Source of the DNA: a virus
UHGV virus genome: UHGV-1383976
Length of the DNA: 64,000 nucleotides
Strand: one strand, 5' to 3'
Within the stretch, counting starts at the first letter, position 1, and each line of letters starts with the position of its first letter. This document shows, in pieces, positions 9,066 through 53,344 of this stretch. The translations under genes and the position numbers were made by a program. Under the pieces are notes generated by a model. That model saw only the letters and a list, made by a program, of their open reading frames with translations. It was not told the DNA's origin and ran no database searches.

Positions 9066-9620
9066 ATGGCTATCAAAAGACTCGTTATTGATGGTTTTGG
9101 CCAGATTGAGTTAAACAATGTGGCTTTCCGTAGAGACGGTCGCGTTGAAGCCCAGTGCGCCCTTGACGCCGAGGACTTCGCTAGCGTTCCTGCGGAAAAT
9201 GGTATGCTTTTGGCCGTTGATAAGGCTAATCGCTGCATAAAATTTTATAATGCTTCTGAGGATCTTCCTCTGGCAATAAATTATAGTTCTGAGCATCTTT
9301 ATGATGAGCGCCTCAACGCTCTGAAGGACTTTAGTCTCAAGCCCGGTCAGCTTTATCCTCGTATGGGTTATCCCGCTATCGGTGACTTGTTTACTACTAA
9401 CACACTGTGCTATGACGATACCGAGTATACAAGTGAGGATGCTCTTTTGACTGCACTCAAGGCTTGCAATACCGCTGTTGTTTATGCTGGTGCTTCCACC
9501 AATGGTGCTTGGAAGGTTTCTGCTACTAAGCCGACTGCTGGTGTCATTGCTAAGGTTGTCAAGGCTTACAGTATGCCTGATGGTCAGTTCGGCGTCAAGC
9601 TCCAGATTCTTGGTTGCTAA
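9066..9620 (+). CDS. Hypothetical head-associated protein (184 aa)
   Basis: Strongly codon-biased ORF between scaffold-like and capsid genes. Confidence 0.4.
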   Translation: MAIKRLVIDGFGQIELNNVAFRRDGRVEAQCALDAEDFASVPAENGMLLAVDKANRCIKFYNASEDLPLAINYSSEHLYDERLNALKDFSLKPGQLYPRMGYPAIGDLFTTNTLCYDDTEYTSEDALLTALKACNTAVVYAGASTNGAWKVSATKPTAGVIAKVVKAYSMPDGQFGVKLQILGC

Positions 9621-9639
9621 TTGAGGAGGTATTTTGAAT

Positions 9640-10686
9640 ATGGCTACTATAAAAGAACTGAAAGACCTCGCTCTCCACGCCGCTAAGGGTACTGCTCCCG
9701 CAAACTTCACTCAAGAAAATGTTGAGGATGCTTTCCGTGGTGAGATGGGTAAGCTCGCTTCTTCTTTGAACGAGTTCAATCGTAATAAGTACGATATTTT
9801 TGAGATTATAATGAGTGCCGCCGATGAAATCGTTCCTAATAAGGTTATTTCCGGTATGGCTCCATTTGCTGAAGTTCAGCAAGTTGCCTTCAAGCAGAAG
9901 GCCGTCTTCCGTCGTCGTGTTGGTCAGAACCGCGCTAAGCTGTTCCTTACCCGTGCGGCTGCGGCTGGTGTTTATGAGACTTTCCGTCTTGATCACACTG
10001 ATTTTACCGTTGAGACTTATGCGATCGGCGGTGCGACCACTATCGACTTCCAGCGTTTCCTTGATGGCGCTGAGACTATGTCCGAGCTTATGGATATCGT
10101 GACCGAGGGTATGGTTGACGTTATCTATGGTGAAGTTCAGCGTGCGCTGAAGGATGCTATCAATGCGGCTGGTCGTCCTGCGGTTAACAAGTATTTCGGC
10201 AACTCCTTTGATGGCACTGAAATGATGAAGCTTATTTCTGTTGTCAAGGCTTACGGCTCTAGTGCTGTTATCTTTGCTCCTCCTGAGTTCGTTGCCGCTA
10301 TGGGTCCGGATGCTATCGTTCCTGTCGGTACTAACTATCAAGGCGTTTATCATCCTCAGGACATCGATGCAATTCACAACACTGGCTACGTCAATCTGTT
10401 CCGTGGTACTCCCATTGTTCAGATCCCTCAGTCCTTTATTGACGAGAGCAATACCAAGACTTGGATTGATCCACAGTTTGCTTACATTCTTCCTGCTGGT
10501 AAGGAAAAGGTTGTCAAGGTTGTTCTTGAGGGTGGCCAGCAAATGTACGACTTCCAGAACCGCGACGCTTCTATGGAACTTCACACCTATCGTCTGATGG
10601 GCGTTGCTATTCTGGCACATCACAACTGGGCGATTTACCAGAACACTGGTATCACCGAGACTGTTGATTCCCCTTACGATATATAA
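9640..10686 (+). CDS. Putative major capsid protein (348 aa)
   Basis: Track start 9634 is TTG; ATG at 9640 sits 9 nt after GAGGAGG. Highly biased codon usage (gct/ctt/ggt). Followed by a strong rho-independent terminator. Lies after the scaffold gene. Confidence 0.55.
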   Translation: MATIKELKDLALHAAKGTAPANFTQENVEDAFRGEMGKLASSLNEFNRNKYDIFEIIMSAADEIVPNKVISGMAPFAEVQQVAFKQKAVFRRRVGQNRAKLFLTRAAAAGVYETFRLDHTDFTVETYAIGGATTIDFQRFLDGAETMSELMDIVTEGMVDVIYGEVQRALKDAINAAGRPAVNKYFGNSFDGTEMMKLISVVKAYGSSAVIFAPPEFVAAMGPDAIVPVGTNYQGVYHPQDIDAIHNTGYVNLFRGTPIVQIPQSFIDESNTKTWIDPQFAYILPAGKEKVVKVVLEGGQQMYDFQNRDASMELHTYRLMGVAILAHHNWAIYQNTGITETVDSPYDI

Positions 10687-36121: not shown

Positions 36122-36820
36122 ATGAACGAAGGACTTAGTGCTAGCGATATTCTCGCTTTGACACGTGATAACGATGATGGTATGAATAATGCTTGGAATA
36201 ACCCTTTTATTTATCTTGTTTGGTTGGCATTGTTAGGTGGCAATGGCGGACTTTTTGGCCGTCGTGATGACTGCGCAACGCAAGGCGCAATAACTCGTTC
36301 CGACCTGTTCGAAGGTTTCAACAACCAAGATGTAAATGGCCAACTTCGCGGTATTACTAATGGTATATGTGATGGCTTTTATGCTATCAATAGCGAGATG
36401 AAAGATGGCTTCTATGGCAACCAAGCCACAATCAAAGATGGCTTTTATTCCACTCAAGCAGCGCTTGCTGAAAACAGATTTGCTCAGCAGCAATGCTGCT
36501 GTGAGACGAACCGCAATATTGACAACGTTCGCTCCGAAGCCTATAAGAATACTTGTGAAATTACCACCGCAATTCATAATGAAGGTGAAGCAACTCGTGC
36601 TCTCATAACCGCAAATACAATGCAAGAACTCCGTGATAAGCTCGCTGATCGCGACAGAGATTTGCTTTATGCAAACTTCCAGAACTCTCAGCAGCTCCAG
36701 AACGCATATTTAGTCGATACTTTGCGTCCTGTTAGTAGACCTGCATATATTACCTGCAGTCCATATCAATCTGTTAACTCTTGTGGTACATCTAGCTGCG
36801 GCTGTGGCTATGGCATTTGA
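36122..36820 (+). CDS. Hypothetical membrane-anchored protein (232 aa): one N-terminal TM helix, DGFY-containing tandem repeats, Cys-rich C-terminus (SCGTSSCGCGYGI)
   Basis: TAGGAGG RBS; TM segment FIYLVWLALLGGNGGLFG; repeats KDGFYA/KDGFYG/KDGFYS. Confidence 0.5.
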   Translation: MNEGLSASDILALTRDNDDGMNNAWNNPFIYLVWLALLGGNGGLFGRRDDCATQGAITRSDLFEGFNNQDVNGQLRGITNGICDGFYAINSEMKDGFYGNQATIKDGFYSTQAALAENRFAQQQCCCETNRNIDNVRSEAYKNTCEITTAIHNEGEATRALITANTMQELRDKLADRDRDLLYANFQNSQQLQNAYLVDTLRPVSRPAYITCSPYQSVNSCGTSSCGCGYGI

Positions 36821-46581: not shown

Positions 46582-49500
46582 TTACTCACCCCTTACGTGC
46601 GTTGTAATGCGACCATATTCATCAATGTCTGTTATTTCTTCGATTAGATGATATGGAGTTCGGGAGTATTTCTTTGCCAGAAACCCGTCATCCCTTCTAA
46701 TACCACACACAATAATCTTGTTGCCGCGTGAAAAGATCGATTTTTCAATAATATGCTTCTTTCCATCTGGCTCTCTTTCAGAAATTTGTTTGTCATAATT
46801 CGCAAATGCTTCTCCAAAAATTTTGACTTGAACAACACCATCTTTTGTCAATAACGAAACAATCTTTTTTGCTTTATCTCTATCCAACACAGTCCCGCAA
46901 ATACGATGTATTCTATAAATCGGAATCGGCGCGCTATCACTATCTTTGCCGCGTGGTTTGAAATAAGTTTCAACGTCAGGCTGCTCTTTCAGCTTGAAAA
47001 AGTCTGAAAAACCTTGAGCGCGCTCATCAATATTTTGCAATTCATGCTCATGGAAATAACACGAAACACTATCCATTTCCCACTTACTTATCGAGCCAAG
47101 ACAATACTTATTCCATACATCTCGCGTCAACCGCTCATTCACGGTGTCTAATAACTCGTCGTGATTTTCTTTTATCCATTTGCGAACATTATCCATATAT
47201 TTCTTATAGATTTTATCCCAAGCTGTGATACTAATTTTGAAACCACTTTCAGTTTCATCACTTGTACTCAAACAGTCGAGTGAGAAGTTTTTATCGAGAA
47301 AATTCAACGCGATATTATCCAGTCCATAGAACGAGGAATCTAACTTCATTTTTTTGAGGTATTTCGTGAAATTATAAACACGACGTTCAAAGTCAAGTTT
47401 TTCTGGTAGCATCCCAAAATTTATCAACATTGCCATATTTTGAAGGGTAATGCGTTTTTTTGTATCACTAATTAGGCCGACATATTCACGCATTAGATTT
47501 ACTCTATCGCCAAAGGCATCAAAAGCGCCGCATTTTATAAGGTTTATCATTTGTGGCTTGTTAATTTTGACTTTAGAGAGAAAGTCTGGAATTGATGTGT
47601 AGGGACGATTGGCAATTATGGATTTGACGATGTCTTCGCCGACCTTGACGATGCCGCTCATACCGTAGCGAATTGTTGAGTTTTCAACATCAGGGGAGAA
47701 GGTAAAAGTGGATTTATTGATATCAGGAGGAGAAATAGAAATCCCGGCCATTCGCATCTTACCAATCGCCGACGCAATTTTACCATAGTTGGTTGTTTTG
47801 ACTTTTTTCTTTTTCTTCTTTATATCAATTTTTTCTTCTTCTTCTTCATCATCGTCGTCATCATCTTCGGTGTCATCGACAAATTCTTCAATACAGTTAT
47901 TATAACTATATTCAATAATGTTTTCTGACGTTTCATCTTCATCATCATTTGACTCATTGCCGCCACTATCGCTAATCAAACACGCGCAATTCCAAAAAAT
48001 TGTTGGAAAACGATATGCAAGATTCATTTCCTGCAAAGCTACAAGCGAATAGGAAAGAGTGTGTGCGCGGCAGAATGAATATCCTCTCTGGACTCTGAAC
48101 AAAACATCCCATACATAATGGGCAAGAGTCATATCACAACCTTTTTCTTTTGCATTTTCAAAATAGGCTTTTTCACATTCATCAAAGAGTTTACCTTGTT
48201 TTTTTGCAATCGCCTTTCGACATTTATCCGCAAAAGTCAGATTATTTCCTCCAAGCCTTTCTTCCTGCAGAAGCTGCATCATTCCTTCTTGACTCTCACA
48301 TATACCACTCGTTATCGCATTATGTCCAATTAACCATTTTATATCTTCATTTTTTAATCCATATTGAATCATTTCGTCTTGCCATTCATTGATATTCAAA
48401 CGATATCTTGCCCACATATCAAGTGGCTGCTCGGCTCCTTTTTCAGGAGCCATTAGACGAATTACTGAATTCAAAACAGCTAATTCACTAACGTTTTTAG
48501 GATGAGTTAGTGCTATTCCAGAAATGCCACTTGGCTGTTCCATTTGGAATAAACTGGATATCTTATGATTCCAAACCATTTCCCACATTTCTGGTGCAGT
48601 TCGTTCAAGATTATATATGCCAATTACACTTTCATAAGTTTCACGTAATGTTGGCTTTCGCTCTATATAACCATAATCACATAATAAGTCTAGCTCATTA
48701 TGTATTTTATCAAGGGCTTCAATTGACAACATATCAATTTTGATTAGCGATGCATCCTCCGCATCGTGAAGCTCAAAAGCCGTGATGACTGTGCCATCAG
48801 GCGCGCGAGTTAACGCTGTCGATTCCGTAAAAGGCTCGTCAACGAAGATTACTCCACCGGCGTGAACACCAATGCCGCAAATTAGCCCCTCAATTTTTGA
48901 AGCAACTTCCCAAACATCGCTGTAGGTTTTCATTGCTTCAACAAATTGTTTTACTGGCTTAAAACCTTTGTCTTCATCGCCCTTTATACATTGAGTAAGT
49001 GAGCGAAGTTGCCCACGATCGGCTGGAATCAGAGACGCCAAATAGGATGCTATATCAACATCAATTCCCAAGCCGCGGCAGGCCGTTAAAATTGCCGATT
49101 TAGATTTTTCTGTTTTGAATGTAATAACATTCGCAACTCTGTCTTCTCCATAAAACTCACGGAACTTCTGTAAAACTTGTGCGCGACGTCCACCTTCAAT
49201 ATCGGTATCGACATCCAATACTGAAGCTCGTTCGGGATTAAGAAAACGCCAATGAAATACTTGAGTTTCTTCTTGGACTGGATTTATCTGTGTTATATCC
49301 AATGCATATAACAAAGTAAATCCTGCACCCGAACCACGCCCCGGCCCGACAAGAGAACCAGCTTCCCAACATAAATCAATATTTTTCTGCAGATTCAGAA
49401 AATAAGTCGACCAATGTGTATGATTCGTTATTGACGAACGCCATGTATCATCAAGACAAATATTTATCTCATCATACGCTCGTTTGTTCTGCAAGCCCGG

Positions 49501-50571
49501 CTTCCGCTGGATGCCATCAATAATCGCCCAAACCAGTTTTCTATCACCCCAATAATCAGAGTTATAGAAAGTTTCCAAATAAGGGATTTCTTGTTTGAGA
49601 ATATCATATGCTGCCTCATCTTCAGGAAAAGTTTTCCAATAAAGTTCTGGAATTTTTAAGGGCCGCATTAGTGAAAAATCCTCACACATTTCACCTATTT
49701 TGAGAATATTGCAATATGCGAGTTGAAGTTGCTCTTCAGTGAAATAGTTGAAATACTCTTCTATTTCTTTTGTATCCATAAGATACGTAGTTGCATAGAA
49801 ATCATCTACTTCTCGCTCACCATTTTGTGCATTAAGATATGCTTTATGAATCGCGCAGTCTTCTTTTTTGAGATAATGGCTGTCAGTTGTTATAACATAG
49901 GAAATGTCATATTTAACTGATAATTCAAGCAACTTCTTATTTACATAAATCTGCTCTTTGTTATAACTTGGTTGCATTTCAAAAAAGAAATTACCGTGCC
50001 CAAAAAGTTTATCCAAAGACAAAATCCAGTTTTCAATTTTGCCATTGAGTGAGCTATCATTTCGCGCTTTGAGAAGCTGAGTAGGAAGACAGCCGCCAAG
50101 ACAAGCTGTCATTCCCACAATATGCCCCGGATTGGCTCCCACGATTTCAAACAAATCACTATAATAAGTTGGCATACGACGCATACCTCGCGCCATATAA
50201 CTACGCAATCCTGCGCGAGTAGATAATTCTCTAATTTGTTTATGCCCGATTGCATCTTTAGCTAACAAGATAAAATGATAATATTTATCTTGTCCCGCAA
50301 TAAAATTCGATGCGTTTAACCCATTTCGACAAAGATAAATTTCATTTCCTTGAATGAATTTGAAATCAGGACATTTTTCTTTTACTTTTTTATAATACTT
50401 TTCTGCCTTAATCGCGCCAGATATTGATTCATGGTCTGTAAGAGCGACGACTTTATGACCTAACTCGATGGCGCGATCAATTAGGTCTGAGACTTTTATT
50501 ATACAGTCTCGAAGCCTTTCATTAGAATAATCCGAATGATTATGTAGCGATCCGGGATACGGAATATTCAA
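46582..50571 (-). CDS. DNA polymerase III alpha-like replicative polymerase with N-terminal PHP domain (1329 aa)
   Basis: PHP motifs (YPGSLHNHSDYS, VALTDHESISG). DnaE-like size. Internal acidic/basic low-complexity insert (DDTEDDDDDDEEEEEKIDIKKKKKK). TTG start with AAAGGAAAGGGG RBS. Confidence 0.8.
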   Translation of the reverse strand: MNIPYPGSLHNHSDYSNERLRDCIIKVSDLIDRAIELGHKVVALTDHESISGAIKAEKYYKKVKEKCPDFKFIQGNEIYLCRNGLNASNFIAGQDKYYHFILLAKDAIGHKQIRELSTRAGLRSYMARGMRRMPTYYSDLFEIVGANPGHIVGMTACLGGCLPTQLLKARNDSSLNGKIENWILSLDKLFGHGNFFFEMQPSYNKEQIYVNKKLLELSVKYDISYVITTDSHYLKKEDCAIHKAYLNAQNGEREVDDFYATTYLMDTKEIEEYFNYFTEEQLQLAYCNILKIGEMCEDFSLMRPLKIPELYWKTFPEDEAAYDILKQEIPYLETFYNSDYWGDRKLVWAIIDGIQRKPGLQNKRAYDEINICLDDTWRSSITNHTHWSTYFLNLQKNIDLCWEAGSLVGPGRGSGAGFTLLYALDITQINPVQEETQVFHWRFLNPERASVLDVDTDIEGGRRAQVLQKFREFYGEDRVANVITFKTEKSKSAILTACRGLGIDVDIASYLASLIPADRGQLRSLTQCIKGDEDKGFKPVKQFVEAMKTYSDVWEVASKIEGLICGIGVHAGGVIFVDEPFTESTALTRAPDGTVITAFELHDAEDASLIKIDMLSIEALDKIHNELDLLCDYGYIERKPTLRETYESVIGIYNLERTAPEMWEMVWNHKISSLFQMEQPSGISGIALTHPKNVSELAVLNSVIRLMAPEKGAEQPLDMWARYRLNINEWQDEMIQYGLKNEDIKWLIGHNAITSGICESQEGMMQLLQEERLGGNNLTFADKCRKAIAKKQGKLFDECEKAYFENAKEKGCDMTLAHYVWDVLFRVQRGYSFCRAHTLSYSLVALQEMNLAYRFPTIFWNCACLISDSGGNESNDDEDETSENIIEYSYNNCIEEFVDDTEDDDDDDEEEEEKIDIKKKKKKVKTTNYGKIASAIGKMRMAGISISPPDINKSTFTFSPDVENSTIRYGMSGIVKVGEDIVKSIIANRPYTSIPDFLSKVKINKPQMINLIKCGAFDAFGDRVNLMREYVGLISDTKKRITLQNMAMLINFGMLPEKLDFERRVYNFTKYLKKMKLDSSFYGLDNIALNFLDKNFSLDCLSTSDETESGFKISITAWDKIYKKYMDNVRKWIKENHDELLDTVNERLTRDVWNKYCLGSISKWEMDSVSCYFHEHELQNIDERAQGFSDFFKLKEQPDVETYFKPRGKDSDSAPIPIYRIHRICGTVLDRDKAKKIVSLLTKDGVVQVKIFGEAFANYDKQISEREPDGKKHIIEKSIFSRGNKIIVCGIRRDDGFLAKKYSRTPYHLIEEITDIDEYGRITTHVRGE

Positions 50572-50603
50572 CTTATCACCCCTTTCCTTTATTTTCTATA
50601 TAT

Positions 50604-50632
50604 ATTATATCAAAAATTAGCCTAAAAGTCAA
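50604..50632 (-). promoter_or_regulatory. sigma-70-like promoter (minus) TTGACT-17-TATAAT upstream of polymerase gene
   Basis: Minus-strand reading TTGACTTTTAGGCTAATTTTTGATATAAT. Confidence 0.7.
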
Positions 50633-50634
50633 AC

Positions 50635-51729
50635 TTAAAAGCTCCACTCCGCGTTTTCGACTTCAACATCTACGATTTGCAATTGGGGGGTGTAATTTCC
50701 TAACCATTCATTAACATTGGGTTTACCCACAATTGTTAAACACATTTCAGGCCATTTATGAAGCTTTTCAATCAAGTCTTTTGCACGGAACTTTATGTAG
50801 GTAATTCCATTTTTTTCAATTCGTATTGTATCTTGATTCTTGCCGATTATTTTTACATCATCGGGTTTTATATAGAGGTTTGTTATCGCTATAAGACTCT
50901 GAGGATTATTTTGACCCCAAACTCTTTCGTAGCGTGCCAAATCAAAAATAATGTTGCTTATATCACTATCACTTGCCTTGCGAACGAAATCGACGTCATA
51001 GTTATTATTACCAAAGTCATAAGATGCCAATTGGGTATTAGAAAGATTCAGTAGTTCATTGCGGCTGTTGGCTGGAATAGCAAACCCAGCAGCGTTAGCG
51101 TGCCCTTGCACATAGTCAAACAATGACGTATCTAACAAATAGTCTTTGAACGACGTGAGCGCACTCTGCGAAAGTCCTCTAATACTTCCCTTTATCATTC
51201 CATCTGAGCCTTCGCGTCCTATCATTGTTGGCTTATGGTATCGCGCGCTAAGTTGCGTGGCAATTAGACCATTCAGCTCAGGAGGAAAGTCATCATCGTC
51301 ATCAAGTTTAACAAACAAAATTTTATTTTCTAGCAAATCATACTTGTGTATCTTATACTCAAGTTGCTCGGTTGCTTTTTCTTTTGCCTTATCTTGATGC
51401 GACTTTGCATTTGTACATTCGCGCGTGCTTTCAATTGCGAGCTTTTCAAGTGTTCCTTTTGCCCCGCGCTTGCCACTTGGCACAAGTGTTTCACCCATAA
51501 CAACTGCACGATAAAGGCGCTCTTTTTCCTCTTGAGAACCTACACGAATCATTGCATTTATCAATGGTGTTATGTAAAATGCAACAGTTGTCGGATTGAT
51601 CTCACCGCCCATTGAGTAGGACTGTTTTTCAACAAGAGTTTTGAGAAAAAAGTTTTGTATGTTAGAACAACCACGCTGAACAATAAATTGATTTTCATAA
51701 GACAACATACTCATCATATCGCTTATGCT
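50635..51729 (-). CDS. Exon 2 of split DHH-family (RecJ-like) phosphoesterase: linker + DHHA1 domain
   Basis: DHHA1 signature GHANAAGFAIP. N-terminal SDMMSMLSYENQFIVQRG aligns with the RecJ ADVVPLDGENRILVKQG continuation after motif IV. An in-frame stop at 51730-51732 lies upstream. Confidence 0.6.
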   Translation of the reverse strand, partial: SISDMMSMLSYENQFIVQRGCSNIQNFFLKTLVEKQSYSMGGEINPTTVAFYITPLINAMIRVGSQEEKERLYRAVVMGETLVPSGKRGAKGTLEKLAIESTRECTNAKSHQDKAKEKATEQLEYKIHKYDLLENKILFVKLDDDDDFPPELNGLIATQLSARYHKPTMIGREGSDGMIKGSIRGLSQSALTSFKDYLLDTSLFDYVQGHANAAGFAIPANSRNELLNLSNTQLASYDFGNNNYDVDFVRKASDSDISNIIFDLARYERVWGQNNPQSLIAITNLYIKPDDVKIIGKNQDTIRIEKNGITYIKFRAKDLIEKLHKWPEMCLTIVGKPNVNEWLGNYTPQLQIVDVEVENAEWSF

Positions 51730-52717
51730 TTAGCCTATATGTTTCCATATAGAATAGACTATCTTTTGCTATAAAAATATAGTGTGTCTCTTTCGATTTT
51801 CAAAGGTTTCATTTCTTAACACCTTGCTACGTATCAATAGTAGCTCTACTCCCCAGCATTTCAACCTAAGGGATAGTCGTTACAGGCTTATTTTACGTGC
51901 TTCCATGTTATATTATCGCAGACTCGTGAAATAGTAATATAAGAAACAAAAGAATATTGTTGACTAATTTGAGTTTTTGTTTTTCCTTGAGAATAAAGAT
52001 TTCGAATATTACGGACGTCCTGCTCCGTCAGTTTGGCTTTGACATTATTTTCTCCTCTATTTGCGATTGATGAATACTCTTGACGAGTTTTCTTTTCTGC
52101 AAATAATTCTTGTCCAATTTCAGGGTATGTTGTTCCCAACCAAACTTTTTCAAATACAGAGAACTTTCTGTCAGAAAAGTCTCTATATACTTCGCATTTT
52201 CTTTCCCCGTTTTTCTTCCTTTTTCTAATCCATAAAATTTCTTCATCAGAAAAAGAACGTCTAGTTTTTCTTTTTTCTTGCCCGCCTTCGGTTAAATTAT
52301 ATCCAAAATCTTTTTCATTCGCTCGGAAATATTTTATCCAGTATTTTTCTTTTTCATCTAATTCTTCGGGCAAACATTCTTCAAGGATAACAATTCTTTC
52401 TACTCGACCAAAATATTTTTTTATAGCTAAATCACAAGCCTGTTTATTTGAGCTGGGAGTATTATGCTCCCACATCCGTCTTTTTATATTAATACTTTGT
52501 CCAATATAACATTTATTATTTGGAAAATCAATCTTGTAAATACCACAAATATTTTGCTCTAAATCAGAAATTATAACTTGTTTCATAGTCCTCCTTTTTG
52601 GAGGCACGTAAAAAATTCCCACGGGATTACCATGCTTTTCAGTTTAGGTTTCCCCGTTAGCATATATTTCTATATACCCTTACTGATAAGTAAGAAAAGA
52701 CACATTCGCACCATTCA
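51730..52717 (-). mobile_element. Group I intron (td-like architecture) with GIY-YIG homing endonuclease ORF in a peripheral loop; boundaries approximate
   Basis: Separates the DHH and DHHA1 halves of one gene. 5' part has an acggggaa...aaucccgug pairing like T4 td P4-P5. 3' part has acgacuaucccuuagg (P7-like, G-binding GACUA). HEG is preceded by its own AAGGAGG RBS. Confidence 0.6.
51888..52586 (-). CDS. GIY-YIG homing endonuclease (intron-encoded)
   Basis: GIYKIDFPNNKCYIGQS...R..EH motif. Start at internal ATG (MKQVIIS) with AAGGAGG RBS; track ORF extends to a GTG at 52622. Coordinates +/-1. Confidence 0.8.
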   Translation of the reverse strand: MKQVIISDLEQNICGIYKIDFPNNKCYIGQSINIKRRMWEHNTPSSNKQACDLAIKKYFGRVERIVILEECLPEELDEKEKYWIKYFRANEKDFGYNLTEGGQEKRKTRRSFSDEEILWIRKRKKNGERKCEVYRDFSDRKFSVFEKVWLGTTYPEIGQELFAEKKTRQEYSSIANRGENNVKAKLTEQDVRNIRNLYSQGKTKTQISQQYSFVSYITISRVCDNITWKHVK

Positions 52718-53344
52718 GTCGATGCCTAATGCAGCTAAATCTGTATAATTCCAAGCCCAATCGTGTCCAAATGCATCATCAAGTGCTCTACAAAACTGCC
52801 ATACAACACCAGCACCACATAGGTCTTTATTCTTGTAGGCGAAGCTTGTCTGATTATTTATAAGAATCATATTGGACGGGATTTCACTTATAGGTTCTAA
52901 TTCGTGATGGTCAAGAACCAATACGGGGCAATCTAATTGTTTAATATACTCGCCATCATTAGTCCCGGCATCTGGAATTAGAACACCGCTCCAACTATGT
53001 TCAAGTAATTGTTCCATCACATCACTACAACCGTGCTGCTTACCACTATGTATTATCTGTATAATATGTTTTACAGGATTGAGTCGCTTTATATATTGAT
53101 AAATAATGCCACTTGATGTCAAGCCATCAGCGTCGCAATCACAAATAATAGCCAGTGGTTTTTCATCATCAATGTTTTGCTTGATAAATTCAATACCCTT
53201 ATCCACATTGTCAAGTGCCCGCCAGCTTTGCAGGCAGGTTTCGTCAGGATTCAAGAACAGCTCAACATTTTCAATCCCTCTAAGCCGTAAAATTTGTTCT
53301 CCATAATTATCATATATTCCATCATTTGTCAATTTATATTTCAC
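52715..53344 (-). CDS. Exon 1 of split DHH-family (RecJ-like) phosphoesterase: DHH domain
   Basis: Motif I ICDCDADG, DHH motif LVLDHHE, motif IV-like CGAGVVWQF; GTG start; ORF terminates at a stop a few codons into the intron. Confidence 0.7.
   Translation of the reverse strand: MKYKLTNDGIYDNYGEQILRLRGIENVELFLNPDETCLQSWRALDNVDKGIEFIKQNIDDEKPLAIICDCDADGLTSSGIIYQYIKRLNPVKHIIQIIHSGKQHGCSDVMEQLLEHSWSGVLIPDAGTNDGEYIKQLDCPVLVLDHHELEPISEIPSNMILINNQTSFAYKNKDLCGAGVVWQFCRALDDAFGHDWAWNYTDLAALGID

Follow-up and report, generated by a model that had tools for sequence, protein, structure and literature searches.

A predicted mobile group I intron with a GIY-YIG endonuclease gene in the RecJ-like exonuclease gene of a phage genome

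In virus genome UHGV-1383976, of which a stretch of 64,000 nucleotides (nt) was analyzed here (the window), the halves of a RecJ-like single-stranded DNA exonuclease gene lie on either side of a reading frame for a GIY-YIG endonuclease, which raises the question of whether the gene is broken or its interruption is removed from the transcript. An initial annotation had proposed a group I intron between two co-oriented open reading frames (ORFs), one encoding a DHH and the other a DHHA1 domain. Pfam searches agreed with this layout, with all relevant features of the locus on the minus strand: ORF 52715-53344 (209 amino acids) matched DHH (2.4e-10), ORF 51888-52622 matched GIY-YIG (1.4e-9), and ORF 50635-51717 (360 amino acids) matched RecJ_OB (5e-11) and, under the Pfam cutoff, DHHA1 (7e-4). 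We consider it very likely that the 994-nt insertion between the two halves is a mobile, self-splicing, phage IA2-like group I intron with the endonuclease gene in the loop of helix P6.

The boundaries of the insertion and the reading frame that its removal restores can be seen directly. In blastn comparisons with three relatives (L001, L002, and L003), the 994 nt at 51728-52721 were present only in the window; alignment to the intron-less DNA broke off at 52721/52722 and resumed at 51727/51728. One C is ambiguous at this breakpoint, and the group I rule that the exon ends in U and the intron in G fixes the intron as 52721-51728. Joining 52722 to 51727 gives ...GGC AU^C AUA AGC GAU AUG... (a caret marks the insertion point), which is translated as ...DLAALGI^ISDMMSM. 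The junction GI^SDMM given in the initial annotation was therefore off by 3 nt, or one Ile codon, as both the blastn breakpoints and an alignment of 120 homologs place it at ...LAALGI^ISDMM.

The conceptually spliced product has 571 amino acids and carries DHH, DHHA1, and RecJ_OB domains. A search with the joined protein returned 4,687 homologs, and 120 homologs among the matches listed, the set to which the gap-free claim applies, aligned with no gap across DLAALGI-ISDMM. This comparison had been suggested as a check, and together with the domain content it upholds the identification of the host as a RecJ-like DHH/DHHA1 gene. Two homologs, P0001 (90% identical, and of the same length, 571 amino acids) and P0002 (97% identical), are uninterrupted at the junction. 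The insertion lies within the conserved segment DLAALGIxxDMMSM, which we take to be DHH motif IV of RecJ, two codons 5' of the invariant Asp. An alternative 3' splice site after G51722 (GI^DMMSM) would also be in frame and was rejected, as it loses two residues of all 120 homologs, leaves no P10, and disagrees with the blastn breakpoint.

The RNA on both sides of the endonuclease gene can be folded into a complete group I core (Table 1), including the P3/P7 pseudoknot and helices P4 to P9, with P7.1 and P7.2 placed between P7 and the P3 3' strand as in IA2 introns. Both fragments quoted in the initial annotation as group I-like elements exist: the acgggga...ucccgug pairing is P4, and the string on the 3' side, acgacuaucccuuagg, which starts at about 51880, consists of J6/7, the P7 5' strand, and the start of P7.1. 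In the window and in 10 of 10 relatives the helix order is the same, with the P3 5' strand 2 to 3 nt after the guide, followed by two hairpins and UAA-P4. Both hairpins occur in all relatives with variable stems; the first (CUUAC-UUAUCA-GUAAG in the window) has a conserved UUAUCA loop and covaries in 4 of its 5 pairs, and the second is a variable stem closed by G-C. Six family members, including the window, have a further hairpin after P7.2 with a UUUAGGAAACGAA-like loop. An Rfam-style P3 for the relatives, formed from the 3' strands of the second hairpin and of P7.2, was rejected, since each strand pairs locally and covaries independently in L007 to L009.

Table 1. Coordinates of the predicted features of the split RecJ-like gene, listed in the order of the transcript
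Feature	Position	Strand	Remarks
Exon 1 of the RecJ-like gene (DHH domain)	52722..53344	minus	Pfam DHH 2.4e-10; 3' end ...GCAUUAGGCAU
Predicted group I intron, 994 nt (CGACUGAAUGG...GGCUAAAG)	51728..52721	minus	No counterpart in L001/L002; RF00028 sub-threshold; family covariance model; covariation
P1, GCAU^C with GGUGC	52725-52721 with 52712-52708	minus	Last exon base, U at 52722, makes the U.G pair at the cleavage site
Internal guide region, AUG (P10) then GGUGC (P1 3' strand)	52708..52714	minus	Pairs with the end of exon 1 and with exon 2
P10, AUG with exon 2 CAU	52714-52712 with 51727-51725	minus	
P3, UGUGUCUUUU with AAGAGACACA	52704-52695 with 51792-51783	minus	6/10 pairs changed on both sides (MAFFT alignment)
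Two peripheral hairpins from P3 5' strand to J3/4, CUUAC-UUAUCA-GUAAG and GUAUAUA-GAAA-UAUAUGC	52660..52694	minus	
J3/4 UAA, P4, and P5 (CU-GAAA-AG tip)	52622..52659	minus	Partial Rfam match 52575-52657; compensatory changes in P4 and P5
P4, CGGGG with UCCCG	52656-52652 with 52626-52622	minus	
P5, ACC with GGU	52649-52647 with 52631-52629	minus	
P6, GGG with CCU	52620-52618 with 51886-51884	minus	GGC/GCU alternates with GGG/CCU in relatives
Hairpin CCUCC-AAAAA-GGAGG over the endonuclease Shine-Dalgarno sequence	52590..52604	minus	Minimum-free-energy fold
Putative GIY-YIG homing endonuclease gene, 232 amino acids	51888..52586	minus	ATG 52586 to TAA 51888; PF01541 1.3e-9
P7, GACUAU with AUAGUC	51878-51873 with 51762-51757	minus	Family-invariant; same strands in Twort orf142-I2
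P7.1, CCCU...GGGG	51872-51851	minus	Cells paired 100%; both-side changes in 4/4 pairs
P7.2, GCUAC-UAUUGAUAC-GUAGC	51844-51826	minus	Cells paired 98%; both-side changes in 5/5 pairs
Extra hairpin after P7.2, AAGGU...ACCUU	within 51803..51872	minus	Cells paired 93%; both-side changes in 3/5 pairs
P8, CUAUA-UUUU-UAUAG	51782-51769	minus	Region 51757..51782 matches Rfam consensus AAGAUAUAGUC; inside the covariance-model alignment
J8/7, CAAAAG	51768-51763	minus	
P9, CUAUAUG-GAAA-CAUAUAG (7-base-pair stem, GAAA loop)	51752-51735	minus	6/7 pairs changed on both sides; 100% paired
Intron 3' end GCUAAAG, terminal G	G at 51728	minus	Fixed by intron-less alleles
Exon 2 of the RecJ-like gene (DHHA1 and RecJ_OB domains)	50635..51727	minus	RecJ_OB 5e-11, DHHA1 7e-4; begins CAUAAGCGAUAUGAUG

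Related introns were traced from endonuclease relatives in IMG/VR and by blastn of the RNA flanks, and 11 introns, namely that of the window and L004, L005, L006, L007, L008, L009, L011a, L055, L002b, and L014a, made up the covariation set. Those of L004, L005, and L006 occupy the same codon as the window intron, in RecJ-like genes whose products are 31 to 38% identical to that of the window, so that one insertion site is used across strongly diverged genes. The introns of L007, L008, L009, and L011a interrupt a gyrB-like Toprim motif; L055 lies in the DNA polymerase III alpha gene of Enterococcus phage EF1; L002b is an ORF-less intron of 241 nt that matches RF00028, the Rfam group I model, at 42.1 bits (E = 1.9e-9); and L014a is a further member of the family. 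The U.G pair of P1 is kept in 11 of 11 introns, and the remaining P1 pairs follow the local exon (GCAU/GUGC, GGCCU/GGGCU, GGGCU/GGCCU, CGGAU/GUCCG, CAGAU/GUCUG, and GGGGU/GCCCU). P10 likewise varies with exon 2 and is complementary fully or at 2 of 3 positions in all relatives.

Covariation was measured on a MAFFT alignment of the 11 introns that was made blind to structure, with 500 column shuffles and partners slid by 1 to 3 columns as controls. Paired cells amounted to 86.5%, compared to 71.8% in the shuffles, and 43 of 68 pairs showed changes on both sides, compared to 25.4 in the shuffles; none of the 500 shuffles reached either observed value. The slid-partner controls gave 37 to 50% paired cells. 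P7 is invariant and hence uninformative in this analysis. A helix table curated by hand, with its bias toward pairing, had 577 of 607 cells paired. In addition, a covariance model of the 3' domain (R1) was built from seven distant members, leaving out the window and L004 to L006. Applied to both strands of the 64-kb window, R1 returned one match, at 51726-51885 on the minus strand, which was full length, scored 74.5 bits (E = 2.1e-16), and contained no non-canonical pair. As this was the only match, at such an E value and to a model made without the window, the site is not a chance resemblance. The group I assignment of the initial annotation is thus sustained by the precise insertion relative to intron-less alleles, the splice-site rules, the covarying core, and the R1 match. 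Another place in the window, at 36716/36959 on the minus strand, where P7 (CGACTA) and P4 (CTAACGG) motifs stand 243 nt apart, was considered as a second intron of the family; sequence inspection, Rfam, and R1 were all negative, and the motifs were set aside as chance matches.

We infer splicing, and with it the activity and target of the endonuclease and the regulation of its translation, with the individual steps drawn from the established group I pathway. The end of exon 1 (...GCAU) would pair with the guide GUGC to form P1, placing the U.G pair at the cleavage site, and an exogenous guanosine bound in P7 would attack after U52722. P10 would then align the CAU of exon 2, and the terminal G at 51728 would move into the G site, allowing the exons to be ligated as ...GGC AUC AUA AGC GAU..., with the junction GCAUUAGGCAU^CAUAAGCGAU. 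Ligation would restore DHH motif IV (DLAALGIISDMMSM) and yield the junction peptide ...LAALGIISDMMSM.... The endonuclease presumably cleaves alleles that lack the intron, close to the insertion site, after which repair would copy the intron into them (homing). Mobility of this kind is indicated indirectly, by sequence comparison: the intron is present or absent among RecJ-like genes 90 to 97% identical, the same site is occupied in the diverged genes, the family is also found in further conserved replication genes, its guides matched to their exons, and the element recurs on several contigs. The intron-less allele of L001 is identical to the window over the 14 nt upstream of the site and has CAT just downstream.

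The endonuclease ORF lies wholly inside the P6 loop, opening 32 nt downstream of the 5' strand of that helix and ending one base short of its 3' strand. This bears out the peripheral-loop position, similar to that in the T4 td intron, that had been proposed for it. The likely start codon is the ATG at 52586. As the initial annotation had indicated, it has a ribosome-binding site of its own, AAAGGAGG, which ends five bases before it, and gene calls on four public contigs use the same ATG. The resulting 232-amino-acid protein matches PF01541 at 38.7 bits (cutoff, 22.6), and the identical protein is called, in the same arrangement, on four independent metagenomic contigs (three of 50 to 200 kb; the two listed are 109 and 129 kb). 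Its 100 N-terminal residues align to the catalytic domain of I-TevI (1MK0; E = 0.002), the best solved relative, keeping GIY, YIG, K/R-R, E (ekekyW), and N (gYN), and the catalytic motifs are intact as judged from this alignment. The C-terminal domain is probably a helix-turn-helix. Over its full length, the protein is 29% identical to a free-standing GIY-YIG protein of L001, the C terminus of which reaches the Sigma70_r4 cutoff in the aligned region, and no zinc finger or NUMOD linker was detected in the window protein. In the predicted fold, CCUCC (52604-52600) pairs with the Shine-Dalgarno GGAGG (52594-52590), which thereby becomes the 3' arm of a hairpin. Hairpins of the same kind, made of other sequences, occur in four relatives, with modest individual z-scores of -1.0 to -1.8; by analogy with I-TevI, the hairpin probably restrains translation of the endonuclease from the unspliced precursor.

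Several observations weigh against an active, mobile intron of IA2 type. The scan with Rfam group I models that the initial annotation had proposed yielded, over 1.4 kb, only 24.1 bits at 51735-51859 and 16.4 bits at 52575-52657 for RF00028, which has a gathering threshold of 50 bits, so that what stood of the expected hit is two partial matches flanking the ORF. Rfam searches of the whole window in gathering and E-value modes gave no match. The canonical IA2 order is not followed, as neither the window intron nor its relatives have a P2 hairpin between P1 and P3. The helix-turn-helix signal in the C-terminal half of the endonuclease is weak (GerE, E = 0.16), and exact-match searches of IMG/VR and the JGI metagenomes did not turn up the empty site GCTGCATTAGGCAT^CATAAGCGATATGATG. 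As for Rfam, related loci gave no match either, in gathering mode for 12 loci and in E-value mode for 10; the best RF00028 score among the relatives, the 42.1 bits of L002b, is likewise under the threshold, and the low RF00028 score of the window looks like a limit of model sensitivity rather than a sign that the intron is absent. The initial annotation had held that lack of a group I model hit would speak for rejection; since RF00028 stays under threshold for an intron that is, on the other evidence, real, such a rule would wrongly reject it.

The same low scores, together with the atypical order of the peripheral helices, could be taken to mean that the insertion is a group I intron by descent that has lost splicing, leaving the RecJ-like gene a pseudogene in this phage, all the more so as splicing is itself deduced. 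We regard this as very unlikely. No core helix is disrupted, and the U.G pair, P10, and the terminal G are all preserved; both exons are open and 90 to 97% identical in protein to uninterrupted relatives; and the arrangement is unchanged on four independent contigs. The unusual helix order is common to the window, the 10 relatives, and the DNA polymerase intron of Staphylococcus phage SpP, and it is therefore a trait of the family and not decay.

A gene truly split by a free-standing GIY-YIG gene, with halves of 209 and 360 amino acids translated separately and assembled into an enzyme, is a scarcely credible alternative. It would account for the three ORFs (209, 232, and 360 amino acids) that gene callers report on the four public contigs, and the downstream ORF does open with ATG ATG; however, no Shine-Dalgarno sequence lies upstream of the ATG at 51717. 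A close relative, L001, has a free-standing GIY-YIG gene adjoining its RecJ-like gene, and a fragmented phage ribonucleotide reductase offers a precedent (PMC3045599), but in the window the flanks of the endonuclease form a complete, covarying group I core with a guide matched to exon 1. The break, moreover, falls inside the conserved DHH motif IV, two codons before the Asp, rather than between domains, and the frame of exon 1 meets a stop only two codons into the insert. The evidence thus favors a spliced intron over both a dead intron and a gene expressed in halves.

Likeness to recognized group I introns adds to the case for the family, through the RF00028 score of L002b and through phages Twort, r1t, and SpP. 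Among the closest known systems are the introns of Staphylococcus phage Twort orf142, whose coding sequence is noted in the Twort record as containing group 1 introns. These introns belong to IA2, and the crystal structure of the I2 ribozyme is known. Twort shares with the window the P7 strands GACUAU/AUAGUC and an AGUAG linker with P7.1/P7.2 between P7 and the P3 3' strand; its P3 3' context (CGAAA...), J8/7 (...GAUAUAGUC), and P9 (CAUAUAUGGAAACAUAUAG) are nearly identical to those of the window, the P7, J8/7, and P9 strings being those of orf142-I2, and Twort P4/P5 (CAGGG/CCUG and CCUAAAC) is similar. Twort follows the canonical order P1-P2-P3-J3/4-P4, whereas the window family has P1-P3(5')-hairpin-hairpin-UAA-P4 and, in six members, the extra hairpin after P7.2. 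Each of the three introns in Twort orf142 is also short, with no room for an endonuclease ORF, whereas the window intron contains a GIY-YIG gene and lies in another host gene.

The T4 td intron is of group IA2 type and carries I-TevI in the P6 loop, with the I-TevI ribosome-binding site occluded. The window intron is likewise of IA2 type, in a phage gene of nucleic acid metabolism, with a GIY-YIG endonuclease in the P6 loop, and the P4 of td (UAAACGGGG...AAUCCCGUG) is close to that of the window (UAACGGGG...AAUCCCGUG). They differ in the host gene (thymidylate synthase for td, a RecJ-like exonuclease here), in the peripheral RNA helices, and in the endonucleases, which are only distantly related (E = 0.002). 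The window helix order recurs in Staphylococcus phage SpP, where a DNA polymerase is split around an annotated "intron-associated endonuclease" with the ORF in the same loop, and in the DNA polymerase III alpha gene of Enterococcus phage EF1, again with an endonuclease ORF in that loop. In the EF1 record (L055, MF001358; about 1200-2180), the intron is unannotated and the polymerase is split around a "hypothetical protein" ORF. DNA between ORF41 and ORF42 of Lactococcus phage r1t, presumably the published r1t intron, is 94% identical to the 3' end of the window intron, and in the 3' domain, the part compared, P7, P8, J8/7, and P9 correspond. A 57-nt blastn match to the P4-P5 region was found in Enterocloster phage CB457P1 (L054), where it falls in a stretch without annotation that separates two "hypothetical protein" genes. 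EF1, SpP, r1t, and the Enterocloster phages (CB457P1 and related), all of which match pieces of the intron RNA, differ from the window in host genes and guide sequences, none of the hosts being RecJ-like.

It is possible, though rather doubtful, that the window intron and its relatives make up an undescribed structural subclass of phage IA introns; the family may already have been drawn under other names. A literature search returned nothing specific on hairpins between P3 and P4 in group I introns. If the subclass is real, the two hairpins at the P7.1/P7.2 end of P3 would be a new peripheral way of stabilizing the core, and this hairpin order is the only aspect that may go beyond the routine.

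The DHH, DHHA1, and OB domains of the host gene are divided between the two exons, uninterrupted homologs have DHH and RecJ_OB, and the spliced product shares the DHH-DHHA1-OB layout of SPbeta YorK and bacterial RecJ ssDNA exonucleases. This product shares 33% of its residues with SPbeta yorK and 38% with the RecJ-like exonuclease of Geobacillus virus E3. The neighbors of the split gene encode a DnaB-like helicase, a protein of 348 amino acids that holds the position of SPbeta yorJ and has no Pfam match, and a DNA polymerase III alpha of 1329 amino acids; relatives of the locus also carry YorF and YorH domains in a yorF-yorL-like synteny. From this gene neighborhood, the context reads as an SPbeta-like phage replication module, with the split gene as the yorK (RecJ-like) homolog. 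In all 222 phage records that matched, the match lay in one place; in the 25 of these rows that were read, it formed one aligned piece, with no interruption seen. A megablast search of the locus against known phages gave no match, nor did an exact-match search of IMG/VR for the 5' intron junction. Separately, the DNA polymerase III alpha ORF of the window (46582-50571, minus strand) has a long low-complexity insert, first acidic and then basic, at about residues 870 to 915 (...DDEDETSENIIEY...DDDDDDEEEEEKIDIKKKKKKVK...).

Relatives of the locus hold further elements. In L002 (5639-5879) and L003, a 97%-identical gene lacks the window's intron and has instead the ORF-less 241-nt group I intron L002b in the DHHA1 GGH motif (CAGGGU^UGAG...ACACG^CACGCU), and callers split this gene into 416 and 164 amino acids; the equivalent site in the window, 51103/51104, has no insertion. 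L001, the intron-less relative with 90% identity, carries, at 9562-10278 between the RecJ-like and DNA polymerase III alpha genes, its free-standing GIY-YIG gene of 238 amino acids with a helix-turn-helix domain, where the window has only a 63-nt spacer (50572-50634). The DNA polymerase III alpha call of L002 (6411-10014) ends at 933 amino acids and is followed by a 246-amino-acid ORF with a faint LAGLIDADG signal, whereas the window gene is intact at 1329 amino acids; this arrangement suggests another intron or an intein. In L005 and L006 (IMG/VR contigs 3300021400_004368 and 3300026549_000035), the RecJ-like exons and the endonuclease ORF each hold several TAG codons in frame, but neither TAA nor TGA. 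TAG is probably a sense codon in these phages, in which case the intron family also occurs in stop-codon-recoded phages. In the gyrB-like Toprim motif TDADSDG^YHIG of L007, L008, L009, and L011, three insertion positions fall within 9 nt (after GAU^AGU, UCAGAU^GGU, and GACGGU^UAU), each with a matching guide, and L011 has two introns of the family about 300 nt apart in one gene.

The type of element, a group I intron with a GIY-YIG endonuclease, is familiar, and a RecJ-like gene is not usually listed as its host; a literature search found nothing specific on a group I intron in recJ or yorK. With this locus, a RecJ-like replication/recombination gene would join the phage genes targeted by group I introns. 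For annotation, it means that three apparently unrelated ORFs are called, with the intron unflagged by Rfam, and that the RecJ-like exonuclease would be scored as truncated or missing. One lineage of intron and endonuclease appears at the same DHH motif IV codon in genes about 35% identical, as well as in gyrB-like and DNA polymerase III alpha genes, with guides matched to each, and in close relatives it occurs alongside another intron, inserted in the DHHA1 GGH motif, and an adjoining free-standing GIY-YIG gene. It reveals no new principle and is a useful natural series for the study of how introns and homing endonucleases are retargeted.

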